From an uncultured Clostridia bacterium (GTDB lineage: Bacteria > Bacillota > Clostridia > TANB77 > CAG-508), in contig CANQTV010000002.1 of NCBI GenBank assembly GCA_947626875.1, forward strand, positions 10,324 to 74,323: a DNA stretch of 64,000 nucleotides, in the 5' to 3' direction. Position 1 is the stretch's first letter. Each line of letters begins with the position of its first letter. The notes beneath the pieces are model-generated. The model saw nothing but the letters and a program-made list of their open reading frames with translations, was not told the DNA's origin and ran no database searches. This document shows, in pieces, positions 206-52,060 of the stretch. The position numbers and the translations under genes were made by a program.

Positions 206-3002
206 AATAAAAATACATGAAGTTGCAAAAAAACTAGAGTTAACAAGTAAAGAGGTAATTGATATAGCAAAACAATTAAAAATTGAAGTAAAAAGTCATA
301 TGAGTAGTATAACAGAAGAAGAAATGGCAAAAATAGAAAAAAAGGTTAAAAAATCAGCAGTAAAAAAAGAAGAGAAAAAAGAACCAAAGGCACCATTTAT
401 TATTAGGAGAGAAGTAATTATCAATGAAGATAAATCAAAGAAAGAAGAAGTAAAAAAGGAATCAAAAAGAGAAAATGTAGGTTTTGTAGAAAGAAAACAA
501 AATGCAGATTATAATATTGTTTATCGTAATAAACCAAATAAACCAAAAACGGTGAGTGAATTATTTGGTTTGAAAACAACAAATAATAATCAACAAGCAA
601 AAGCAGAACCAGTAAAAACTGAAAAAGCTGAAAAAACTGAAAAGCCAAAAGAACAGTTAAAAGAACAACCAAAAGAATCAAAAACTGTACAAGAGCAAGC
701 AGAAGTGCACAATCATATGCAAACACAGCCAGTACAAACAAAACAACATATGCAAAATTCAAATCAACAAAGTAGAAATAAAGATAATAATTTTCGCCAA
801 TATAATAATAGAAACAATCATGGAGACAATAGATTTAATAACCGTAAAAATGGAACAAATCAAAATCAAAGTTATCAAAACCGCTTTGGAAATCAAAGGC
901 GCCCATTAGATGAAAAAGGAATTGAAAAAAACATAAAAAACATCATGTCTGCAGATATAGGTGAAAAAGAAGTCGTAAGGGAATACAATAAAAATATTGA
1001 TAAGCAAAAAAATAGTAATAAATTTGAAGAAAATAGGGGAAAGAAAACCAGAAATAGAAGAAACGGAAATGAAAATTCTTTTGATGAAGGTAAACTAAAA
1101 AGCCTAAAACAAACAAGTAAATTATCGCATATGTTTGATGATCAAGAAGGTGGAATGTTAGATTATTATGATTTAACAACACAAAGAGGAAGAAAAGGCA
1201 AGAAAAAACCAAGTAAAGGAAATGAAGAAAGGAATAAGCAGAAAATTTTCAAATTAACAGAAATAGAAATACCGGAAAATATTACGGTAAAAGATTTAGC
1301 TGCTGAGATGAAAAAAACCACAGCAGAAGTTATCAAAAAATTACTAGGATATGGCATTATGGCAACAATTAATAATGAAGTTGACTTTGACACAGCTTTC
1401 TTAGTAGCAGGGGAATTTGGTATTACAGCAAAGAAAAAGGAAACAATAACAGAAGAAGATATTTTGTTTGATGATTCTGAAGATAGTCAAGATGAGTTAC
1501 AAGAAAGACCACCAGTTGTTGTAGTAATGGGACATGTAGACCATGGAAAAACATCTTTATTAGATACAATCCGTAAAACAAATGTTATTGAAGGAGAAGC
1601 AGGTGGTATTACACAGGCGATAGGTGCATATATGGTAAATGTAAATGGTAGACAAATTACATTTCTAGATACACCAGGGCATGAAGCATTTACTGCTATG
1701 AGAGCTAGAGGTGCACAAATTACAGATATTGCAATATTAGTAGTTGCTGCAAATGATGGTATCATGCCACAGACTGTAGAAGCAATAAATCATGCAAAAT
1801 CAGCAGGAATACCAATTATTGTTGCTATTAACAAAATTGATTTACCAGATGCTAATATTGACAAAGTAAAACAAGAATTGATGAACTATGAATTAGTACC
1901 AGAAGAATGGGGAGGAGACACTATTTGTGTACCAATTTCTGCAAAGAAAAATGTAAATATAGATCAATTACTAGAAATGGTATTATTACAAGCAGATGTA
2001 TTAGAATTAAAAGCAAATCCTCATAAACAAGCAAAAGGTGTTGTAATTGAAGCAAGACTTGACAAATCAAAAGGTGCTATTGCAACAATGTTAGTACAAA
2101 GAGGAAAACTAGATGTAGGTGATACAATAGTAGTAGGTTCTTCAATTGGAAGAATCAGAGTCATGACAAATGAAAAAGGCAAAAAAGTAAAATCAGCTAC
2201 ACCATCTACACCAGTAGAAATTATGGGATTAACAGATGTACCAGAAGCGGGAGACACATTCTATGAGGTTAAAGATGAAAAAACAGCAAAACATTTAATA
2301 GAAAGAAGAAAACGTCAAGCAAGAGAAAAAGCTATCAATCAAGTAACAAAAGTAACATTAGATAATTTATTTACTCAAATGGAAGAAGGAAAATTAAAAG
2401 TATTAAACTTAATTGTCAAAGCAGATGTACAAGGTTCTGTTGAAGCAGTAAAACAATCTATGGAAAAACTAGCTAATGATGAAGTTAGAGTAAAAGTAAT
2501 TCACCATGCAACAGGAGCAGTAAATCAATCAGATGTTACATTAGCAAAAGTGTCAAATGCTATAATTATTGCTTTTAATGTAAGACCAGATGCAGTGGCA
2601 AAAGAAATGGCAGAAAAAGATGAAGTAGAAATTAAACAATATTCTGTTATTTATCAAGCTATTGAAGATGTTGAATTAGCAATGAAGGGAATGTTAGATC
2701 CTAAATTTGAAGAAAAAGTCATAGGAAATGTAGAAGTAAGACAAACATTTAAGATTTCAAATGTTGGAACTATTGCAGGAAGTTATGTATTAAGCGGAAA
2801 GGTAGAAAGAAATGCAGGAGTTAGAGTAATTCGTGATAATGTAGTAATTCATGAAGGTAAACTTGCAACATTGAAGAGATTTAAAGATGATGTAAAAGAA
2901 GTTACAAAAGGATTTGAATGTGGTATTCAAATCGAAAACTATGATGATATCAAAGAAGGAGATAATATCGAAGTATATGTCATGGAGGAAATCAAGAGAT
3001 AG
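183..3002 (+). CDS. infB: translation initiation factor IF-2
   Basis: 939 aa with G-domain motifs [20 protein letters not shown] and NKID, and a conserved C-terminal domain. The N-terminal region is a K/E/N/Q-rich low-complexity linker. The start is uncertain: ATG 183, or TTG 198 behind a GGGGGTGA SD. Confidence 0.95.
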
Positions 3003-3115
3003 GGAAAAGGGGACGTCCTTTTTTTCCCTATCAAAATATTCCCTATTTGTGATTTTGTGATATAGAATAAAGAGGGAAAAACGGAATAGGGAAAAAAAGG
3101 ACGTCCCCTTTTCCC
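3002..3115. repeat. family-1 palindromic intergenic element, complete copy
   Basis: The left arm GGGAAAAGGGGACGTCCTTTTTTTCCC (3002-3028) and its exact reverse complement (3089-3115) flank the inner inverted module TATCAAAATATTCCCTATTT / ...GGAATA. The first G is the last base of the infB TAG. Confidence 0.9.
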
Positions 3116-3133
3116 TTAGGAAAGGAGCAAACT

Positions 3134-8990: not shown

Positions 8991-10394
8991 ATGGAAATTT
9001 ATTTATATAATACATTGACAAAAGAAAAAGAAATTTTCAAACCAATTAATCCAGATGAAATAAAAATTTATTCTTGTGGACCGACAGTATATAAAGATGC
9101 AACAATAGGAAATTTGAGAACAAATGTATTTCAAGATGTATTAAGAAGAGTTTTTCAATATAATGAATATAAAATAAAGCATGTAATGAATATAACAGAT
9201 GTAGGTCATTTAGTTTCAGATGGTGATGAAGGGGAAGACAAAATGATAAAATCTGCAAGAGAACAACATAAAACACCATTAGAAATTGCAGAATATTATA
9301 CAAAACTATTTTTTAAAGATTTAGAAGATTTGAATATTCAAACACCTGAAATTATATGTAAAGCAACAGAGCATATTTCAGAAATGCTTGAGTATGTAGA
9401 AGAATTGCTTAAAAATGGATATGCTTATGAAACTTCAACAGCAATATATTTTGATATTTCTAAATTAGACAAATATCCAATATTATCAAACCATGATTTA
9501 GAAGAACAAAAAGCAGGGGCTAGAGTGCAAGTTGATGAAGAAAAGAAAAATCCATATGATTTTGCATTATGGATAAAAGCACCAGAAAATCATTTGATGA
9601 AGTGGGATAGTCCATGGGGACCAAGTTATCCAGGTTGGCATATTGAATGTTCAGCAATGGGTCAGAAATATTTAGGAGAACAATTTGACATACATACAGG
9701 AGGAATTGATTTAATCCCAACACATCATGAAAATGAAATTGCACAAAGTAAAGGTAAATGTGGAAAAATTCCAGCTAATTACTGGTTACATGGAGAATAT
9801 TTATTAATCAATGGTGGAAAAATGTCAAAAAGTCTAAATAATGTATATTTATTGAAAGACATTGAAGAAAAAGGATATGATCCATTGGTATATAAGTTGT
9901 TTTGTTATTCTTGCCATTACCGTAACAAATTAAACTTTACATGGGAAGGAATAGAAGCAACTGCAAAATCATTAGAAAGATTGCGTAATAGTTATCAGAT
10001 GCATTTAAATGGAACAGATGAGTTAGAAGAAAGTGAAAAACAGCAATTAATAGAAATTAAAAGTAATTTTCATAAAGCAATTAATGATGATATGAATATG
10101 CCATTAGCATTAAGTTATGTATGGGAAGTTGCAAAGTTTGATAAAAAATCAAAGGAAATAGCTAAATTATTAGCAAAATTTGATACAGTTTTGGGAATAA
10201 AAATTGATAAAGAAAAACAAGAAATTTCACAAGAAATTCCAAAGGAAGTATTAGAAATAGTAAAAGAAAGAGAACAAGCAAGGGCACAAAAAGATTGGGA
10301 AAAATCAGATAAGCTAAGAGATAAAATTAAAGAAATGGGATATGAAGTGAAAGATACAAAGGAGGGCTCTCAAATCTTAAAAATATTGAGTTGA
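8991..10394 (+). CDS. cysS: cysteine--tRNA ligase
   Basis: Motifs YSCGPTVY, GWHIECS and KMSKS (GGKMSKSLNN). 467 aa. Confidence 0.93.
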   Translation: MEIYLYNTLTKEKEIFKPINPDEIKIYSCGPTVYKDATIGNLRTNVFQDVLRRVFQYNEYKIKHVMNITDVGHLVSDGDEGEDKMIKSAREQHKTPLEIAEYYTKLFFKDLEDLNIQTPEIICKATEHISEMLEYVEELLKNGYAYETSTAIYFDISKLDKYPILSNHDLEEQKAGARVQVDEEKKNPYDFALWIKAPENHLMKWDSPWGPSYPGWHIECSAMGQKYLGEQFDIHTGGIDLIPTHHENEIAQSKGKCGKIPANYWLHGEYLLINGGKMSKSLNNVYLLKDIEEKGYDPLVYKLFCYSCHYRNKLNFTWEGIEATAKSLERLRNSYQMHLNGTDELEESEKQQLIEIKSNFHKAINDDMNMPLALSYVWEVAKFDKKSKEIAKLLAKFDTVLGIKIDKEKQEISQEIPKEVLEIVKEREQARAQKDWEKSDKLRDKIKEMGYEVKDTKEGSQILKILS

Positions 10395-10513
10395 AAAATA
10401 ATTACAATTTTGACTGTGTCAACTTTCATTAAAAACGCGGTTACATACAAAGAGTATGTGCCCTTGCCTTTTTAATAAAAGTTTCCTTGTCAAAATTTAA
10501 TTCTTTTCCAACT
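10389..10513. repeat. family-2 long-hairpin intergenic element, copy A
   Basis: AGTTGAAAAATAATTACAATTTTGAC...GTCAAAATTTAATTCTTTTCCAACT folds as one about 60-bp imperfect hairpin. The cysS TGA (10392-10394) lies inside the left terminus. Confidence 0.88.
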
Positions 10514-10547
10514 GAGAGTTTGTACTTAGGAAAGGAATGTGATAGAA

Positions 10548-17479: not shown

Positions 17480-17485
17480 TGGGGT

Positions 17486-17614
17486 AGTTGAAAAACAATT
17501 ATAATTTTGGCTGTGTCACAACGATTAAGGAATACAGTTGACTAAAGTCAACTGCATACTGACGCTGTAACAGCTAAAGCTTAACAGCCTCAGCAATTTA
17601 ATTCTTTTTCAACT
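17486..17614. repeat. family-2 element, copy B (same termini, different core)
   Basis: AGTTGAAAAACAATTATAATTTTGGCTGTGTCAC...CAGCCTCAGCAATTTAATTCTTTTTCAACT. The core holds its own hairpins CAGTTGACTAAAGTCAACTG and GCTGTAACAGC. Confidence 0.85.
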
Positions 17615-17652
17615 TAGTGACCATATACGTTTAGAAAGGAATGAAATAAAAT

Positions 17653-19662
17653 ATGAAGTATACAAAAGAAGCACTTACTTTAGAAAAAGGAATTGAAAGA
17701 GAATGGATTATAACAAATGGCATTGGCGGATTTGCTAGTTCCACTAGTATTGGAATTAATACCAGAAAGTATCATGGTTTGTTAATAGCTCCATTAACAC
17801 CACCAGCTAGGAGATATTTAATATTATCTAAACTAGATGAAAGTCTTGAAATTGGTCAAAAGCATTATGATTTATATTCAAATATGTGTGAAAATTATAT
17901 ATCCAAAGGATATCAATATCAAACAAGTTTTGAAAAAGAATATGTACCTGTATTCACATATAGTGTAGAAGGTGTGCAGATCACAAAAACAATTTGTATG
18001 GAATATGGAAAAAATACTGTAGGTGTGCATTATAAAATAAAAACAAAGGACAAGCCTGTAAAACTAACTTTGGCACCAATTATGAATTTTAGAGATTTTC
18101 ATACAATGAGTACAAATCATGATTTTCAGGTAAAACAACAAATAAACGGAACAAAGGTAAGAGTTGTTATAGATGATGTGATACAATTTCCAATATATAT
18201 GAATTTGTCAGAAGGAAATTATGTGCAACATGAACATGATATATTTTCACATATGTTTTATGTAGAAGAGCAAAAAAGAGGTTTTTATCCAGAGGAAAAC
18301 CATGCAGTAATTGGAAGATATGAAGTAACAATTCCAGAAAATACAACAAAAGAGATTTCATTTGTGTGTTCATTTGAAGAGAATATAGAAGAAATAGATG
18401 TTAAAAAATTAATTCAAAAAGAAAAAAGAAGACTTCAAACAATTGTAAAAAAATCAGATTTAATTGAAGAACCAGAAGCTGAAGAAAAAAAGGAACTTAT
18501 TAAAAATTTAATTATTAGTACAGATAGTTTTATTGCATATAGACCAACATTTAGGTTACATACAATTATAGCAGGATATCCATGGTTTTTAGATTGGGGA
18601 AGAGATAGCTTAATTGCATTAGAAGGGCTATTATTAAAAACAAAAAGATTTGACATAGCCAAAGAAGTGTTATTGACAATGGTAAGAGATATCAAATATG
18701 GATTGGTTCCAAATGGGTATTCAGGTTTTGATAATCGTCCTCTATACAATAGTGTAGATGCATCTTTGTTATTATTTGAACAAATACAAAAATATATTGA
18801 ATATACTGGTGATGAAAGCTTTATTGAAAAAGAAATATTTAGTAAGCTAGAAACGATCATTGAAAATTATATGAATGGAATTGATGTTGATAATAACAAT
18901 ATTTATTTAGATTCAGACAATTTACTTGTATCAGGAACAGACACAACACAAAATACATGGATGGATGCAAAAATTGGTGATTTTGCTGTAACACCACGAA
19001 ATGGTAAAGCGGTAGAGATTAATGCAATGTGGTATAATAGCTTAAAAATCATGGAAAGTTTATGTAAAAAATTTAAGAAAACAACACAAGCAAAGAAATA
19101 TGCTGAATTAGCGAAAGCAACTAAAAATGCATTTGAAGATAAATTTTATAATAGTCGTAGAAAATGTTTGTATGATGTATTAGGAGATAGCAAAATCAGA
19201 CCAAATCAATTATTTAGTTTAAGTTTGACATATCCAATTATTGAACCAAATTCTGAGATTGCAGAAAATATTATTGCAGTAGTGGAGAAAAAGTTATTAA
19301 ATCCATATGGATTGCAAACATTAGCAAAAGGTGAGAAGGGATATGTTGCGGTTTATGAAGGAGATCCTAAAAAACGAGATATGAGTTATCATCAAGGAAT
19401 TACTTGGACATGGTTATTAGGAATTTATTTTGATAGTTTATGCAATATACAAAAAGCACAAAAAGGTAAAACTAAAAAAGAAAAATGGACAAAAAAAATA
19501 CAAGAATTTAAAGAAAATGTAACTCAAACATTTTCAAAAGAAATAGAAGAAAGAGGTTGTGTAGGAAGTATTGCAGAAATTTACGACTCAAATAAACCAT
19601 ATGCACCAAAAGGTGCAATATCACAAGCATGGAGTGTAGCAGAAATTTTGAGAATTATTTAG
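17653..19662 (+). CDS. glycogen debranching enzyme (amylo-alpha-1,6-glucosidase family)
   Basis: N-terminal EWIITNGIGGFASST...RKYHGLL, a GDE_C-type motif GYPWFLDWGRDSLIAL, and C-terminal SQAWSVAEILR. Confidence 0.85.
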   Translation: MKYTKEALTLEKGIEREWIITNGIGGFASSTSIGINTRKYHGLLIAPLTPPARRYLILSKLDESLEIGQKHYDLYSNMCENYISKGYQYQTSFEKEYVPVFTYSVEGVQITKTICMEYGKNTVGVHYKIKTKDKPVKLTLAPIMNFRDFHTMSTNHDFQVKQQINGTKVRVVIDDVIQFPIYMNLSEGNYVQHEHDIFSHMFYVEEQKRGFYPEENHAVIGRYEVTIPENTTKEISFVCSFEENIEEIDVKKLIQKEKRRLQTIVKKSDLIEEPEAEEKKELIKNLIISTDSFIAYRPTFRLHTIIAGYPWFLDWGRDSLIALEGLLLKTKRFDIAKEVLLTMVRDIKYGLVPNGYSGFDNRPLYNSVDASLLLFEQIQKYIEYTGDESFIEKEIFSKLETIIENYMNGIDVDNNNIYLDSDNLLVSGTDTTQNTWMDAKIGDFAVTPRNGKAVEINAMWYNSLKIMESLCKKFKKTTQAKKYAELAKATKNAFEDKFYNSRRKCLYDVLGDSKIRPNQLFSLSLTYPIIEPNSEIAENIIAVVEKKLLNPYGLQTLAKGEKGYVAVYEGDPKKRDMSYHQGITWTWLLGIYFDSLCNIQKAQKGKTKKEKWTKKIQEFKENVTQTFSKEIEERGCVGSIAEIYDSNKPYAPKGAISQAWSVAEILRII

Positions 19663-19763
19663 GGAATTGGGGACGTCCTTTTTTTCCCTATCCAAATTTT
19701 CCCTATTTTGGATAAGGAAGATAAAGAATATTAAAATAGGGAAAATTTAGATAGGGGAAAAAA
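19662..19763. repeat. family-1 element, right GC core missing
   Basis: The left arm GGGAATTGGGGACGTCCTTTTTTTCCC and the inner pair CTATCCAAATTTTCCCTATTTT / AAAATAGGGAAAATTTAGATAG are present. The right side stops at GGGGAAAAAA, just before the ruvC ATG. Confidence 0.85.
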
Positions 19764-19764
19764 T

Positions 19765-21361: not shown

Positions 21362-22036
21362 ATGTTAAAAAGAATAGGAATAGTATTATTAGTAATTATG
21401 ACATTTGCAGTAACAATAATATTTGTGCAACATTCTGTAGAAGCATTATCAAAATATGGTTCAAGAGGTAATGAAGTAAAAGAAATACAAACAAAATTGA
21501 AGAGATGGGGATATTATAAGGGACAAATAGATGGAATTTATGGAAGTCAAACTTTAGAAGCGGTCAAATATTTCCAAAGAAAAAATGGATTGACAGCTGA
21601 TGGTATTGCAGGACCAGCAACATTAAAAGCTATGGGAATTACATCATCATCTTCAAACACGTCAAGTGGAAGTGGTTCTACGAATTCAAGCAATACGAAT
21701 TTATTAGCAAGATTAGTATATGGAGAAGCAAGAGGAGAACCATATTCTGGACAAGTGGCAGTAGCAGCAGTTGTATTAAATCGTGTAAAGAGTAGCTCTT
21801 TTCCAAATTCAATATCAGGAGTGATATATCAATCAGGTGCATTTAACGTTGTATCAGATGGACAAATAAATTTAACACCAAATGATACAGCCAAAAAAGC
21901 TGCACAAGATGCAATAAATGGGTGGGATCCAAGTTATGGTGCTATTTATTATTTTAATCCATCAACAGCAACAAATAAGTGGATATGGTCAAGACCAATG
22001 ACAGTAACTATTGGGAAACATAGATTTTGCAAGTGA
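21362..22036 (+). CDS. SleB/CwlJ-family cell wall hydrolase with N-terminal peptidoglycan-binding domain
   Basis: Signal/TM segment, then a PG_binding_1 repeat (GSRGNEVKEIQTKLKRWGYYKGQIDGIYGSQT..AVK.FQ...GL.ADGIAG), an S-rich linker, and a Hydrolase_2 core (LARLVYGEARGEPY.GQVAVAAVVLNRV). Confidence 0.85.
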   Translation: MLKRIGIVLLVIMTFAVTIIFVQHSVEALSKYGSRGNEVKEIQTKLKRWGYYKGQIDGIYGSQTLEAVKYFQRKNGLTADGIAGPATLKAMGITSSSSNTSSGSGSTNSSNTNLLARLVYGEARGEPYSGQVAVAAVVLNRVKSSSFPNSISGVIYQSGAFNVVSDGQINLTPNDTAKKAAQDAINGWDPSYGAIYYFNPSTATNKWIWSRPMTVTIGKHRFCK

Positions 22037-22063
22037 GGGAATAGGGGACGCCCTTTTTTTCCC
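22037..22063. repeat. family-1 element, solo left arm
   Basis: GGGAATAGGGGACGCCCTTTTTTTCCC lies immediately after the TGA of the SleB-like gene. Confidence 0.8.
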
Positions 22064-22065
22064 TC

Positions 22066-26896: not shown

Positions 26897-28078
26897 ATGT
26901 TAGAAGTTTTTATTAGCAAAAAGAATGAGCAAGAAAGAATTGCACTTGTTGAAAATGGAAATCTAGTAGAATATTACGAAGAAGACCCAGATACAGATAG
27001 AAAAGAGGGAAATATTTATATAGGAAAAGTAAAAGACATAATTGTCGGTATGCAATCAGCATTTATAGATATAGGCACAGAAAAAAATAGTTTTATACAT
27101 GTAAGAGATATTTTGCCAAAAGTAGATGAGAAGAATGAAGTATCGAATATGGATGTACAAATTAGAGATGTTATAAAGCCAAATCAAAAATTATTGGTAC
27201 AGGTAAAAAAAGATAGTAATGAAAAAAAAGGAGCAAGAGTTTCAACACATATTAGTTTACCAGGAAGATATATTGTATTAATGCCAAATACTGATATTAT
27301 TACAATTTCGCAAAAAATAGAAAGTAAAAAAGAACAGGAGAGATTACTAAATTTAGTAAAAGAGCATATATCAAAGGAAAATGGTGCTATTATTCGTACA
27401 TCAAGTATGAAAAAAGACAAAGAAATAGTTGCAGAAATTCAAAGTTTAGAAAAAAAATGGAGAGAAATTCAAGAAGAATATGATAACAATACTGAGGGAG
27501 AAGGTAAATTAATTTATCGAGCAGAAACAATTGTTGAAAAAATGTTGTTAGATTTATGCAATCAAAATATTGAAAATATAGTAACAGATGATCAAGCAGA
27601 ATATGAAAAAACTTTAAAAATTAAATCAGAAACACCAGAATTAGAAAATACAAAAATAAATTTAGAGCATAAAGATATATTTGAAAAATATGAAATTGAG
27701 ACGCAAATAGAAAAAAGATTAAATAGAAAAATTTGGCTAAAATGTGGAGGATTTATCACTATTGATAAAACAGAAGCATTAACAGCAATTGATGTTAACA
27801 CAGGAAAATATACAGGAGACAAAAGTTTAGAGCAAACTTTATATAAAGTTAATGAAGAAGCAACAATTGAAATTGCTAAACAAATTAGATTACGTGATAT
27901 TGGTGGAATTATTATTATTGATTATATAGATATGAAAAAACAAGAAAACAAAGATAAAATTCAAAAATTATTGGAAGAAAGGTTAAAATTAGATAGAAGT
28001 AAAACACAAATAGAAGGATTTACAAAATTAGACTTAATGGAGATGACAAGAAAGCATATTTGTAGTCACAAAGAATAG
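26897..28078 (+). CDS. rng: RNase E/G-family ribonuclease (short form, ends before Zn-link/small domain)
   Basis: S1 domain (GNIYIGKVKDIIVGMQSAFIDIG), DNase-I-like region ALTAIDVNTGKYTG and GGIIIIDYIDM. It ends at ...EMTRKHICSHKE. Confidence 0.85.
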   Translation: MLEVFISKKNEQERIALVENGNLVEYYEEDPDTDRKEGNIYIGKVKDIIVGMQSAFIDIGTEKNSFIHVRDILPKVDEKNEVSNMDVQIRDVIKPNQKLLVQVKKDSNEKKGARVSTHISLPGRYIVLMPNTDIITISQKIESKKEQERLLNLVKEHISKENGAIIRTSSMKKDKEIVAEIQSLEKKWREIQEEYDNNTEGEGKLIYRAETIVEKMLLDLCNQNIENIVTDDQAEYEKTLKIKSETPELENTKINLEHKDIFEKYEIETQIEKRLNRKIWLKCGGFITIDKTEALTAIDVNTGKYTGDKSLEQTLYKVNEEATIEIAKQIRLRDIGGIIIIDYIDMKKQENKDKIQKLLEERLKLDRSKTQIEGFTKLDLMEMTRKHICSHKE

Positions 28079-28178
28079 GGAAAAGGGGACGTCCTTTTTT
28101 TCCCTATTGAAATATTCCCTGTTTTTTTATATAAGAGGGAAAAATAGAATAGGGAAAAAAAGGACGTCCCCTTTTCCC
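28078..28178. repeat. family-1 palindromic intergenic element, complete copy
   Basis: The arms at 28078-28104 and 28152-28178 are identical to those of the 3002 copy. TA flanks both ends (28076-28077 and 28179-28180). The rimO SD follows directly. Confidence 0.9.
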
Positions 28179-28192
28179 TAGGAGGAATAAAA

Positions 28193-31904: not shown

Positions 31905-33188
<1,284 letters not shown>

Positions 33189-33360
33189 GGGAATTGGGGA
33201 CGCCCTTTTTTTCCCTAGCCGGGAATTGGGGACGCCCTTTTTTTCCCTATCTAATTCTTCCCTATTTGTATATTATTAAAAAATTATTTTTCCTATCTAA
33301 ATAGGGAAGAATTAGATAGGGAAAAAAAGGGCGTCCCCAATTCCCGGCTAGGGAAAAAAA
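33189..33360. repeat. family-1 element, nested/duplicated copy
   Basis: Two tandem left arms (33189-33215 and 33221-33247) are joined by TAGCC. They are followed by the inner module, a full right arm (33319-33345), GGCTA, and a truncated second right arm GGGAAAAAAA. Confidence 0.9.
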
Positions 33361-39294: not shown

Positions 39295-39304
39295 TTAGAA
39301 AAAA

Positions 39305-39352
39305 GGGAAAAGGGGACGCCCTTTTTTTCCCTATCTAAATTTTCCCTATTTG
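39305..39352. repeat. family-1 element, left half only
   Basis: GGGAAAAGGGGACGCCCTTTTTTTCCCTATCTAAATTTTCCCTATTTG lies 10 nt after the fhs stop. No right half is present before the Rpn gene. Confidence 0.85.
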
Positions 39353-39627: not shown

Positions 39628-40611
39628 ATGTTATTGATGATAAATAAAAAAACAAATCAGCCATATGATAAGATTTATAGGAAGATATTATCCAATAAAA
39701 TACAAGTAGTAGGACTGTTAAATAGATATATAAAAACTGAAGAAAAAATCACAGAAGATAATATAGAAAGATATCAAAGCAAATTTGTAAATGCACAATT
39801 TGAAAACAGAGAATCAGATATAGTATATAAAATAAAAAATACAAATGTATTTTTCTTAATAGAACATCAATCGAGAATAGATTATAACATGGCACAAAGA
39901 ATAGCAGAATATCAAATGGAAATAATTAAATTAGAAAATCCAAAAAAGGAAAATAGAAAAAATATAGTAGTGCCGTTAGTTATTCCATTAGTAATATATA
40001 CAAGTAATAAAGCAAAATGGAATGCGCAAAGAAGCATAACAAAAATGCAACCAAAAGTGAAGGGGTATAAAAGGTTAGGTTTAAGTGAATATCACTTATT
40101 AGATATAAATTCAATAGATGTAAATCAATTATTGCATGAAAATCTTTTTGTGTTAAGAATATTTGGATTAGAAAAGGCAAAAACTCAAGAAGAGCTAGGC
40201 AATATTTTTGAATATATCTTACATACAGAACAAGATAAAGAAAATATACAATTATTAAAAGAAATAGCATATTATGTGTACAACACAGTATTAGAAAATG
40301 AAAAAGTAAAAGAAAAATTTGAAGAATTGGAAGAAGGTGAGGAAAATATGAGTTTTGTAGATATGTTATTAGAAGAAAAAGAAAAACACATAGCAGAAGG
40401 CGAAAAATTGGGAATAAAGAAAGGACGAAGTGAAGGTGAAAAAATTGGAAGACAACAAGGTGAAAAAATCGGAAGGCAGAAAGGAGCACAAATTCAAAAA
40501 GAAAAAATAGCTAAAAATTTATTAAATTTAAAAATGAAAATACAGGATATAGAAAGAGCAACAGGTTTAAGTGAAAGCGAAATAAAAAAATTGCAAAAAA
40601 CTAAATCATAG
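39628..40611 (+). CDS. Rpn-family recombination-promoting nuclease / putative transposase (PD-(D/E)XK, YhgA-like)
   Basis: N-terminal DKIYRKILSN..., ...RESDIVYKIKNTNVFFLIEHQSRIDYNMAQRIAEYQ (the D..EHQS core of the YhgA/Rpn family), and a repetitive C-terminal EGEK(L/I)G..(K/Q)G tail. Confidence 0.8.
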   Translation: MLLMINKKTNQPYDKIYRKILSNKIQVVGLLNRYIKTEEKITEDNIERYQSKFVNAQFENRESDIVYKIKNTNVFFLIEHQSRIDYNMAQRIAEYQMEIIKLENPKKENRKNIVVPLVIPLVIYTSNKAKWNAQRSITKMQPKVKGYKRLGLSEYHLLDINSIDVNQLLHENLFVLRIFGLEKAKTQEELGNIFEYILHTEQDKENIQLLKEIAYYVYNTVLENEKVKEKFEELEEGEENMSFVDMLLEEKEKHIAEGEKLGIKKGRSEGEKIGRQQGEKIGRQKGAQIQKEKIAKNLLNLKMKIQDIERATGLSESEIKKLQKTKS

Positions 40612-45065: not shown

Positions 45066-45983
45066 CTAAATTTTTCCTATACGGAAATTCCCAGATGATG
45101 GATTTCCTGAGGAAGGATTTGATAAATCATAAAAATTATCTTCTTCTTTATAAAATTTCTTATATAAGTCATGAATATTATATATTTTTTGCATACTATT
45201 TTTTACTTTTAATGAAGAAATAGGCTTGCTGTGTTGTTCATTAGTTTTTATATTTCTAATCAAAATATCTTCTTGAGTAAACAAAATATGATCATTTGGT
45301 GAAACGAGAGGATTAGAAATAGTAATGTAAAAATAGTTAGGCAAAGGAATTGGTTCATTTTTTGTGTATTCAGGGATTGGTTTTCTTGCAAGTTCAATAC
45401 GATAGTGGCAATCACTATCTTTAACATGTAAATACCAAGAATTAGCAAAATCATTGATTTCTACTTCATAACTATATTGCATGGTATCATTATAAATAAT
45501 TAAAATAGGACGTGTTTTTTCAAAGAAATTATCACCATATTGTTTTTTTAAATTTTCTCTATCAGTATCTGAAATATCCCAATAAATGAATAATGTATTT
45601 GGGGTTTGAGCAAGTAATTTTATAACAGTTTGATTATAACGGTATGGCAAATCATAATATTCTACAATATCTACTTTTTTATCAGCTGATACTTTTCTGG
45701 TTCTTGTTGTTTTTTTTGTAGTGGTAGCCTTTTTTGTGCCAGTTGTTTTTTTAGCTGTTGAGCCTTTTTTTGTACTGGTTGTTTTTTTTGTTGCTGAGCT
45801 TTTTTTTGTAGAAGAAGCTTTTTTAGTGCTACTTGTTTTTTTGGTAGTAGCCTTTTTTGTAGTGGTAGCTTTTTTTGTAGTAGGAACTACTTTATTACTA
45901 GTTGTTTTTTTTGTAGCAGTTGTAGTTTTTGTTGTAGTTATTTTACTTTCAATTTCTTTTTGCTCTTTTGTTTTCCTTGGCAT
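45066..45983 (-). CDS. DUF4912-family protein with T/K-rich repetitive N-terminus
   Basis: C-terminal YDLPYRYNQTVIKLLAQTPNTLFIYWDIS resembles DUF4912, which commonly lies upstream of GH57 genes. The N-terminal ~95 aa are degenerate TKK(A/T/S)TT repeats. Confidence 0.7.
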   Translation of the reverse strand: MPRKTKEQKEIESKITTTKTTTATKKTTSNKVVPTTKKATTTKKATTKKTSSTKKASSTKKSSATKKTTSTKKGSTAKKTTGTKKATTTKKTTRTRKVSADKKVDIVEYYDLPYRYNQTVIKLLAQTPNTLFIYWDISDTDRENLKKQYGDNFFEKTRPILIIYNDTMQYSYEVEINDFANSWYLHVKDSDCHYRIELARKPIPEYTKNEPIPLPNYFYITISNPLVSPNDHILFTQEDILIRNIKTNEQHSKPISSLKVKNSMQKIYNIHDLYKKFYKEEDNFYDLSNPSSGNPSSGNFRIGKI

Positions 45984-46209: not shown

Positions 46210-47223
46210 TTGTTGGACCAAAGAAAGAAAAAAGTCTTACAAGCTATTGTAGAAGAATATGTCAATACAGCAGAACCAATCAGCTCAAATCAATTAACAC
46301 AAAAGGAAGAATTAAACTACAGTAGTGCAACCATAAGAAATGAAATGGCGAACTTGGAAAAAGCTGGGTATTTAGAAAAAACACATACATCTAGTGGAAG
46401 AATACCGTCGGAAAAGGGATATCGATACTATGTAGATGAATTATTAAGAGATGATAATATTAGTTTAGAAGAAATCAAATACATTAGTGAGAAATTAGAA
46501 ACAAAAGTTAATGAAATAGAAGAGCTAACAAAACTCACAACAACTACTATTTCAGAAGTTACACATTATACGACAGTGGCAATAGGCCCAAGCCCCAAAA
46601 CACAATGTATAGAAGAGATAAAGTTTGTCTTATTAGGAAGTCGAATGTTAATGGCAATTATCCTAACAAATACAGGTATGGTAAAGGAAACTATTATCAA
46701 ATTTGATGAAGATGTTACAGAAAAACAAGTTGAAACTATTAACTATATGTTCAATAAGAAATTAAAAAATCAGCCATTAGAAGTTATTGATATTCCACTT
46801 CAGGAGTATTTAATAAATGAAATGAAATATAGTGTAAAAGTAATAAAGCCAATTATTGAGCAAATAAAAAAGGCATTACAGGAAGAAACACAGATATATT
46901 TGCAAGGTGCTAATAAAGCTTTTGACTTACCAGAGTTTAATAGTTTGGCAGTTGCAAAGAATTTTATCAATATTATTGATGAAAAAGAGCTAATGGCAGA
47001 TATGTTAAATACTGGATTTGCAAAAGATATAAATGTATATATTGGTGATGAAAATGAAAAAGAACAGTTAAAAGATTTTAGTATTATTACTTTTAAGCAT
47101 AGAGTTGGTAATAGAGATTTGGGTACAATTGGTATTATTGGGCCAAAGAGAATGGATTATTCAAAAGTTATTTCTGTGATGAAGTATATTAGTAAGAAGT
47201 TAAACGAAAAAGAGGTGGATTGA
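46210..47223 (+). CDS. hrcA: heat-inducible transcription repressor HrcA
   Basis: LDQRKKKVLQAIVEEYVNTAEPISSNQL winged-helix N-terminus, with CIRCE directly upstream. The TTG start at 46210 sits 7 nt after an AGAGGTG SD (the ORF track begins earlier, at 46138). Confidence 0.9.
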   Translation: MLDQRKKKVLQAIVEEYVNTAEPISSNQLTQKEELNYSSATIRNEMANLEKAGYLEKTHTSSGRIPSEKGYRYYVDELLRDDNISLEEIKYISEKLETKVNEIEELTKLTTTTISEVTHYTTVAIGPSPKTQCIEEIKFVLLGSRMLMAIILTNTGMVKETIIKFDEDVTEKQVETINYMFNKKLKNQPLEVIDIPLQEYLINEMKYSVKVIKPIIEQIKKALQEETQIYLQGANKAFDLPEFNSLAVAKNFINIIDEKELMADMLNTGFAKDINVYIGDENEKEQLKDFSIITFKHRVGNRDLGTIGIIGPKRMDYSKVISVMKYISKKLNEKEVD

Positions 47224-47342
47224 AAAATAATTACAATTTTGACTGTGTCAAATTTCATTTTGAACGCGGTTACATACAAAAAGTATGCGCCCTTGCCTTC
47301 AAAATAAAATTATCCTTGTCAAAATTTAATTCTTTTCCAATC
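47218..47342. repeat. family-2 element, copy C, inside the hrcA-grpE operon
   Basis: It is collinear with copy A over its full length. The hrcA TGA (47221-47223) lies inside the left terminus GATTGAAAAA. Confidence 0.88.
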
Positions 47343-47376
47343 ATATTAAAACCTTAGAAAGGAAGGAGAATAAAAT

Positions 47377-52030: not shown

Positions 52031-52060
52031 CTAGTTGAAAAATAATTATTTTCCAACTAG
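52031..52060. repeat. family-2 minimal form (both termini fused, no core)
   Basis: CTAGTTGAAAAATAATTATTTTCCAACTAG is a 30-nt hairpin made only of the two family-2 ends. It lies in the leader of the alg14-like operon. Confidence 0.7.

Follow-up and report, generated by a model that had tools for sequence, protein, structure and literature searches.

Family 1 is a palindromic intergenic repeat found in a stretch of 64,000 nucleotides from an uncultured Clostridia bacterium (contig CANQTV010000002.1, positions 10,324 to 74,323 of the forward strand), hereafter the window. These repeats are very probably non-autonomous elements of the repetitive extragenic palindromic (REP) type, partly arranged as the hairpin-forming doublets called REPINs, and belong to a gene for a REP-associated tyrosine transposase (RAYT, of the HUH/Y1 type) whose position is conserved across three species. 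This reading is carried by the dispersal of the family and its hairpin doublets, by the arms on both flanks of the RAYT gene, by the fold and motifs of the encoded protein, and by the covariation of the repeat stems. Work on REP/REPIN-RAYT systems has been confined almost entirely to Proteobacteria, and what RAYTs do for the cells that carry them is still open. Family 1 does not represent a new kind of bacterial repeat but a further example of a known one, and it adds a clear case from the AT-rich uncultured Clostridia of gut metagenomes, in which GC-cored repeats stand out.

Architecture of the repeats

The 27-nt arm pattern GGGAANNGGGGACGYCCTTTTTTTCCC has ten matches without mismatches in the window, against 0.00 expected from 100 shuffles. 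They lie on the plus strand at 3002, 19662, 22037, 28078, 33189, 33221 and 39305, and on the minus strand at 3089-3115, 28152-28178 and 33319-33345, exactly where a first, sequence-only reading of this DNA had placed them, and are spread over six intergenic loci. The 9-mer GGGACGYCC is absent outside the arms in the whole 64 kb, whose GC content is 28.5%. With its feet included, the arm is a 31-nt imperfect palindrome, TAGGGAA-nn-GGGGACGYCC-TTTTTTTCCCTA, in which the stem GGGAAAA/TTTTCCC, with the feet TAGGGAA(A)/(T)TTCCCTA, closes an asymmetric loop that holds GGGACG. As a single-stranded DNA hairpin this 31-nt unit folds with -5.6 to -10.5 kcal/mol (z = -1.1 to -4.6). The 8-mer GGACGTCC, previously described as the palindromic centre of every arm, is palindromic in the T variant only.

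In the doublets, each arm is followed inward by one or more 15-nt modules ending in TTCCCTA, and this repeated module of 12-15 nt is the same as the 3' half of the arm. The second inverted module that had been reported inside the arms is present, with a true length of 20 nt (TATCnAAnnnTTCCCTATTT); the pattern first given for it was one base short and therefore found no true copy without mismatches. Its right-hand counterpart is a perfect complement in the 33221 copy and an imperfect one in the 3002 and 28078 copies. A full copy, made of two inverted arms and their TTCCCTA-bearing inner modules, forms a hairpin of 100-130 nt, and this doublet layout is the architecture called REPIN. The window holds three complete doublets (3000-3117, 28076-28180 and 33219-33347), in each of which both arms bear the same private variant, and several more full copies exist in relatives. 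The paired changes that keep the two arms complementary, noticed from the letters alone, are real, and they recur in relatives, again matched in both arms. Folded as RNA, the 3000-3117 copy reaches -67.3 kcal/mol (z = -9.3).

The copies of the window are the following:

3000-3117, no strand assigned: full REPIN-like copy in the infB/rbfA spacer; left REP 3000-3030 (plus), right REP 3087-3117 (reverse complement); inner modules 3029-3048 (left) and 3072-3088 (right) with an AT-rich loop between them; the TAG of TAGGGAA is the infB stop codon and the right end abuts the rbfA ribosome-binding site.
19660-19764, plus strand: copy between the glycogen-debranching enzyme (GDE) gene and ruvC; left REP 19660-19690, its TAG being the GDE stop codon; inner modules 19689-19708 (left) and 19737-19753 (right); right REP truncated to TAGGGGAAAAAA (19752-19763), just ahead of the ruvC ATG.
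22035-22065, plus strand: solo REP immediately after the TGA with which a cell-wall hydrolase gene ends, some 50 nt upstream of dnaE.
28076-28180, no strand assigned: full REPIN-like copy in the spacer that separates the RNase G gene from a MiaB-like gene; left REP 28076-28106, right REP 28150-28180; inner modules 28105-28124 (left) and 28135-28151 (right); TAG serves as stop codon, and at the right end CCCTAGGAGG continues into the ribosome-binding site.
33187-33360, no strand assigned: nested structure behind obg (obg/Asp23 spacer); outer left REP 33187-33217; inner complete REPIN 33219-33347 with left REP 33219-33249, right REP 33317-33347 and inner modules 33248-33267 and 33302-33318; outer right remnant TAGGGAAAAAAA (33349-33360).
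39303-39351, plus strand: left half only, between the formate-tetrahydrofolate ligase (FTHFS) gene and a PF04754 gene; REP 39303-39333 and inner module 39332-39351.

The 28076 and 3000 copies belong to the same subfamily, and the solo REP at 22035-22065 folds as a single-stranded DNA hairpin with -6.3 kcal/mol. All six loci are spacers between plus-strand genes (infB, rbfA, GDE, ruvC, the cell-wall hydrolase gene, dnaE, RNase G, the MiaB-like gene, obg, Asp23, FTHFS and PF04754). At three of them the TAG of the arm doubles as the stop codon of the upstream gene, and at two more the arm stands directly behind the stop; the half copy at 39303 begins 8 nt past the ligase stop, and its 27-nt arm 10 nt past it. 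All three stop codons are represented upstream of the copies, and right arms reach into the ribosome-binding site of the next gene.

Three loci had been listed as solo or half copies. This description suits 22037 and 39305 but not 19662, which keeps its right inner module and the first 12 nt of its right arm (19737-19763). The statement that only the left arm is always retained is correct for the window; in related genomes there are right-only halves, which sit just upstream of ribosome-binding sites. Both truncated right arms of the window (19752-19763 and 33349-33360) stop exactly at the inner-module boundary. They share their end point, after TAGGG(G)AAAAAA(A), which is the complement of the 12-mer TTTTTTTCCCTA that also makes the right-type inner module. 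An aberrant cut-and-join event at this repeated site might account for the truncations, a point that is speculation.

The RAYT-type gene and its product

The sequence-only reading had pointed to a cognate RAYT gene as something to look for elsewhere in the genome, and a gene of the RAYT type, flanked by inverted arms, is found in contigs that belong to this organism and to two related species. A phmmer search with E. coli RayT against all open reading frames (ORFs) of the fetched loci gave a single match, encoded in the metagenome-assembled genome (MAG) Clostridiaceae S24_Bin1 at a distance of 150 nt downstream from a family-1 arm. Protein lengths range from 252 to 259 aa (259 aa in S24_Bin1, 255 aa in the window species), and the HUH motif takes the form NHAH and the tyrosine motif that of YIHHNP or YIHYNP, both in S24_Bin1 and in its homologues. 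They score 35-37 bits on Pfam Y1_Tnp (gathering threshold 23), and 19 bits or no match on the NCBIfam IS200 model versus 61-67 bits on REP_Tyr_transpos. A member of the 90% cluster of the S24_Bin1 protein is called 'REP element-mobilizing transposase RayT' by JGI.

Since a sequence search of the PDB was uninformative (4ER8 at E = 0.16), a comparison of folds was needed. The AlphaFold2 model of the RAYT protein P0124 has a pLDDT of 88, and its best Foldseek match is 4ER8_A, the E. coli TnpA-REP bound to a REP hairpin, with a target-normalised TM-score of 0.74, ahead of the IS608 and ISDra2 transposases. The C-terminal part, approximately residues 150-254, is helical in the model; the helix-turn-helix signal in this extension is limited to a weak HTH_37 match (E = 0.034).

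The gene has the same neighbours in three species: Peptidase_S26, holB, PSP1 and ferredoxin on one side, and an LPG synthase gene in opposite orientation on the other. Protein identities among the three range from 54 to 88% (S24_Bin1 against its close relative 88%, against the window's species 54%). In all three, a pair of inverted family-1 arms, complete with inner modules, encloses the gene (loci L064 in S24_Bin1, L067 in its relative, and L070/L071 in the window species), in agreement with the report that RAYT genes are always flanked by two inverted REPs (PMC2817692). In L071 the exact 27-mer stands on either side of the gene, within flanks that can be aligned to window copies over some 50 nt. 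The 64-kb window itself does not contain the RAYT gene. The contigs that carry P0124 share ENA and Logan samples with contigs bearing window genes, and match those of the window organism in coverage (5.37 vs 5.38 and 5.55 vs 5.13) and in GC content (28.8% vs 28.5%).

Covariation of the hairpin stems

A metagenome scan with an alignment of the RAYT proteins yielded 372 relatives; flanks were examined for 41 more distant ones and stems analysed at 28 loci. Most of the 41 are flanked by inverted repeats built alike, with a stem of 5-9 nt followed by GGGAC(G/A), a small number of variable positions, a stretch rich in T and the complement of the stem. The 28 loci have 27 distinct stems, and the mean longest complementary run is 6.9 nt between a stem and its own partner versus 4.2 nt between that stem and the partners of other loci. 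GGGACG is the invariant motif of these repeats, in the form GGGAC(G/A) in some of them. Because the stems covary in this way, GGGACG appears to be a fixed recognition element and the stem to be free to change as long as it stays paired, as would be expected for a hairpin read by a protein. The roughly 370 metagenome relatives thus form a natural covariation series that points to the part of the hairpin read by the enzyme.

Other families of palindromes with a GGGGAC core were seen at L020 (1-120), L012 (1543-1589), L057 (9866-9970) and L030 (5690-5760), with the sequences TTTTGGGGATTGAGGGACACCCC, TTTTGGGGACGGAGG and GTCCAATTGGGGACGGGTAC among them. Palindromes with this GGGGAC(G) core resemble the flanks of other RAYT relatives (L074, L082, L112), and two of them are nested exactly between the CCCTA and the TAGGG of family-1 arms.

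Distribution in related genomes

A scan for the exact 20-nt core, with one genome per species, gave 42 loci, of which 41 (50 arms) lie in related MAGs; the family is thus not confined to the six sites of the window. The L038 locus was rejected as a chance match in GC-rich Lachnospiraceae sequence. About 30 loci belong to S24_Bin1, nine to Clostridium sp. 26_22 and a few to others, all of them MAGs of uncultured Clostridia. The DNA of the window is 70-83% identical to that of the arm-bearing MAGs, so it comes from a different species than any of them.

Arm variants are specific to genomes. The form GGGAA-nn-GGGG occurs in the window species and in Clostridium sp. 26_22, S24_Bin1 has GGGAAATAAAGGGG, often with TTTTCTT, and two further relatives have GGGAAAAAGGGACGCCCTTTTCTTCCC. 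The private spacer variants ATAAG, GTAAA and ATTTA, and CCCG in L060, are each matched in both arms. The TAG of the family-1 foot occurs as part of TAGGG, and some copies of S24_Bin1 read GTAG at this position.

In approximately 38 of the 54 scored halves, left-type halves follow stop codons, right-type halves precede ribosome-binding sites, and the inner spacer is A-rich on the sense strand; the exceptions include the left flank of the RAYT gene itself in S24_Bin1. Compositional bias, strand-specific transposition or selection may underlie this orientation pattern.

Two features have been seen in S24_Bin1 beside the arms. At L003, L007, L014, L016 (4169), L021, L025, L031 and L040, a purine-only sequence of 30-60 nt (e.g., GAGGAAAAAGGAAAAAGGAAAAAGGAAAGA) separates the stop codon from the arm, and the arms behind such stretches have GAGGGAAAAAAA in place of TAGGGAAATAAA. 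At L017 (6955-7925), two inverted arms separated by about 920 nt, both with the private spacer ATTTA, enclose an ORF of 219 aa that matches nothing in Pfam, as if the gene occupied the loop of one element.

Gain and loss of copies

Five states of the infB/rbfA spacer are seen across the window and its relatives. No element is present in strain contig L052, whose rbfA is 98% identical; a 25-nt hairpin, GGAAAAAAGAGGATACCTTTTTTCC, is all that is present in L056 (130-182), with RbfA 95% identical; the copy in the window is full; L060 (9815-9960) has an arm followed by seven tandem 15-nt units TGAAAAATTTCCCTA; and another relative has a degenerate arm that encloses a different palindrome. The L056 hairpin has an arm-like shape without the GGGACG core, and L061 and L062 show scaffold gaps (runs of N) at the site of the L060 array.

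Elsewhere, occupancy differs between species at three sites: upstream of obg, upstream of FTHFS and downstream of obg. In S24_Bin1 there is nothing after obg, and the window segment 39295-40650, which comprises the half REPIN and the PF04754 gene, is absent at the orthologous site (L030), where a different palindrome, GTCCAATTGGGGACGGGTAC, follows the same ligase gene. The site after GDE is occupied in both the window and S24_Bin1 (L006), and so is the site after RNase G, where the S24_Bin1 ortholog (L022) is a left half. The flanks at empty or variable sites are too diverged to define exact insertion junctions. Look-ups at strain level around ruvC and the hydrolase gene gave near-identical contigs only, with no extra polymorphism, and a look-up of the Asp23 protein found no record. 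Short-read contigs repeatedly break inside arms, as expected of multi-copy repeats; one Logan contig, L154, ends within the solo REP at 22035-22065.

The idea of a mobile family had been set against the possibility that relatives carry every site alike, without insertion polymorphism. One strain has an empty orthologous site and occupancy varies between species. Together with the nested copy, the genome-specific variants and the contig breaks, these are signs of mobility or turnover, and copies appear to have been gained and lost. As the repeats supply stop codons and break metagenome assemblies, gene calling in these MAGs is affected as well.

Proposed mechanism

The mechanism proposed for family 1 is modelled on E. 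coli TnpA-REP and the IS200/IS605 transposases (PMC3479197, PMC6006769, PMC2817692). By homology with TnpA-REP and with the TnpA of IS608, the RAYT would recognise the folded single-stranded hairpin, cut it and rejoin it, spreading and remodelling copies in trans and without target duplication. Copies would survive where they are harmless, namely in the short spacers between stop codon and ribosome-binding site within operons, often donating the stop codon themselves. They may persist there because they supply their own stop codon and leave the ribosome-binding site intact, as Di Nocera et al. describe for other REPs, the termini of which often provide a TAG stop codon (PMC3733652). Such copies would be transcribed within polycistronic mRNAs and form very stable hairpins, possibly with a secondary effect on mRNA processing or stability.

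Several points weigh against the assignment of family 1 to a RAYT. The canonical GT[AG]G head is not conserved, the feet of the relatives reading TAGACA, CAGACA, GTATACA, TGGAAAA and others, and the 61-67 bits obtained on NCBIfam REP_Tyr_transpos are below the curated cut-off of 80. The RAYT gene is tied to the genome of the window by common samples and by agreement in coverage, GC content and arm variant, not by a contiguous assembly, and the copy number of family 1 is a count over the window and the fetched loci, not a genome-wide one. The occupation of two orthologous sites in species about 72% identical in DNA could reflect long persistence and selection rather than ongoing mobility. Moreover, to our knowledge, transposition of REPs by a RAYT has not been directly shown in any system.

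Alternative explanations

Among the alternatives, the one that survives best, although still unlikely, is that family 1 is a cis-acting RNA element of the host, involved in mRNA stabilisation, RNase III processing or translational coupling and kept by selection, with an incidental or historical link to the RAYT. The position of the arms, beginning at or overlapping stop codons and ending at ribosome-binding sites, the very stable RNA fold, and the A-rich sense strand of the inner-module spacers in most halves would all suit such a role. So would the retention of the arm sequence at the two sites common to species about 72% identical in DNA and the occupation of the infB/rbfA site in several lineages, and REPs elsewhere have been reported to affect mRNA stability (PMC3733652, PMC6006769). 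Nevertheless, that same site is empty in one strain, occupancy is variable between species, and nothing indicates that the genes on either side require the element. The presence of halves, of nested copies and of tandem 15-mers suggests turnover over a fixed design, and genome-specific arm variants are what a family co-evolving with its transposase would be expected to show. A secondary, exapted RNA role may exist alongside mobilisation by the RAYT.

A standard, Rho-independent terminator was rejected, since no U-run follows the hairpin on the sense strand, where UUAGG or UAGGAGG is found instead. A terminator scan flags only the minus strand of one arm, and canonical terminators exist elsewhere in these genomes.

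The first classification of the family as MITE-, REP- or Correia-like was right in its REP part, while no evidence was found for a Correia-type MITE (a transposable element of the miniature inverted-repeat type). Such an element would be a deletion derivative of an insertion sequence with a DDE transposase, with the arms as its terminal inverted repeats and TA as the duplicated target, and is a very improbable description of family 1. Many copies are indeed bounded by TA...TA (28076/28180, L016 and L006, for instance), and family 1 shares with the Correia elements of Neisseria and other MITEs the shape of an intergenic hairpin repeat of 100-150 nt, co-transcription with its neighbours and presence/absence polymorphism. 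However, the TA is contained in the palindromic foot TAGGG/CCCTA, and several ends lack it or have it in altered form (TT at 3117, CC..GG at 33219 and GA..TC at 22035). A TA target-site duplication is not supported. The flanks of the nested obg copy are inverted (TAGCC/GGCTA), not direct, and no direct repeat extends beyond the palindromic TA. Correia elements duplicate a TA target and are not known to have a cognate transposase, whereas here duplication is not consistent and a gene for a Y1 transposase lies between arms in three species. A DDE transposase whose ends match the arms was not seen. A 'transposase' family gene, that of PF04754 (Transposase_31, YhgA/Rpn-like), does adjoin a copy, at 39628-40611 next to the 39303 half copy. 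It was rejected as a partner because no homologue is present in any other arm-containing locus and no right arm lies behind the gene.

It is hardly credible that the arms are binding sites for a DNA-binding protein unrelated to transposition, such as a nucleoid-associated protein or a repressor, acting at the 8-mer TTTCCCTA with 15-nt spacing. The motif TTTCCCTA/TAGGGAAA does occur four to eight times per copy, and expands to seven tandem 15-nt units in L060. Yet no candidate protein was found, the motif makes up the 3' half of the stem of the hairpin and, in other RAYT lineages, varies as that stem does, and the helical C-terminal extension of the RAYT itself could bind it.

Integron attC sites and recoding of the pyrrolysine or selenocysteine type were considered and set aside in view of the context: the genes on either side have core housekeeping functions, and each of the three stop codons is represented. 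A scan of the window against Rfam at gathering thresholds matched no family, and ARAGORN found no tRNA or tmRNA in it. Full-text literature searches with the core strings GGGGACGCCC and GGGGACGTCC and their complements returned unrelated eukaryotic and viral matches only.

Comparison with known systems

Family 1 shares most of its features with the REP/REPIN-RAYT systems of Proteobacteria, such as the REPs and BIMEs of E. coli with RayT/YafM or the REPINs of Pseudomonas. In both cases the repeat is a short, dispersed, extragenic imperfect palindrome that occurs as singlets and as inverted doublets forming a long hairpin, with compensatory pairing changes; the end of a copy gives a TAG stop codon; and the variants are specific to genomes. 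A syntenic Y1/HUH gene, here in three species, lies between two inverted copies, and the predicted fold of its product is nearest to 4ER8. The differences are the host, here an AT-rich lineage of uncultured Clostridia; the invariant loop motif GGGACG in place of a conserved GT[AG]G head; a protein whose length is about 255 aa instead of the 165 aa of E. coli RayT, some 100 aa of it being a helical C-terminal extension; an NCBIfam RAYT score below the cut-off; and the 15-nt subterminal modules ending in TTCCCTA, which can be amplified in tandem.

Judged from its long protein, the helical C-terminal extension and the G-rich motif, family 1 seems closest to the TIRYT/TIRtron class (PMC3733652). 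There too, a longer-than-canonical RAYT-like gene is flanked by inverted repeats without GTAG, some of the repeats are self-complementary, and moderately abundant families are arranged as dimers. The motif published for the TIRYT flanks, GGGGWSAS (PMC3733652), resembles the GGGGACGY found here, with 7/8 positions matched by the C variant and 6/8 by the T variant; position 7 is G here instead of A, and the form GGGGACAG of some relatives matches at 8/8.

Of the 26 described TIRYTs, 20 belong to the TnpA-Y1 subclass 2.1, which has been equated with Bertels' Group 1 (Quentin et al. 2018, PMC6006769). Clostridia are among the reported hosts of Group 1 RAYTs (PMC5581495), for which few repeats at the flanks, and no hairpins, have been recognised (PMC5581495, PMC6006769). 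No REP-like secondary structures were reported near the genes of subclass 2.1 by Quentin et al., in contrast to the clear flank hairpins with covarying stems described here, and the high local density of 10 arms in 64 kb differs from that of Group 1, where the 16-mer of the flanks is reported roughly 12 times per replicon. The combination found here (NHAH, Y[KR] in place of W[EQ], and YIH[HY]NP) is not fitted exactly by any of the published subclass signatures. Long, C-terminally extended RAYT-like proteins can thus own abundant hairpin repeats, of which earlier surveys had found none for that class.

A bolder and rather doubtful proposal is that the proteins form a distinct RAYT subclass of gut Clostridia. 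Its catalytic domain would read the loop motif GGGACG and not a 5' head, its C-terminal helical domain would bind the iterated TTTCCCTA in the 15-nt modules, and the halves would have been co-opted as operon punctuation. Left halves would then donate a stop codon and give the upstream cistron a hairpin at its 3' end, and right halves would put one just ahead of the following ribosome-binding site, a role that would explain the sense-strand polarity of the inner modules.

Other repeats in the window

A second intergenic repeat family, of about 120-170 nt and without a match in Rfam, is present at 10395-10538, 17480-17652 and 47224-47376. It starts with AAAATAATTACAATTTTGACTGTGTCAA and ends with AATTTAATTCTTTTCCAAC, and the copies 10391-10511 and 47220-47340 are 91% identical. 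The tail of the family, TTCTTTTCCAAC, is also found behind the genes at approximately 13282 and 42464, with a variant near 52040. Finally, a tandem repeat at 45674-45955, with spacings of 15, 18 or 36 nt and nine overlapping 105-nt registers, lies within the minus-strand ORF 45066-45983.

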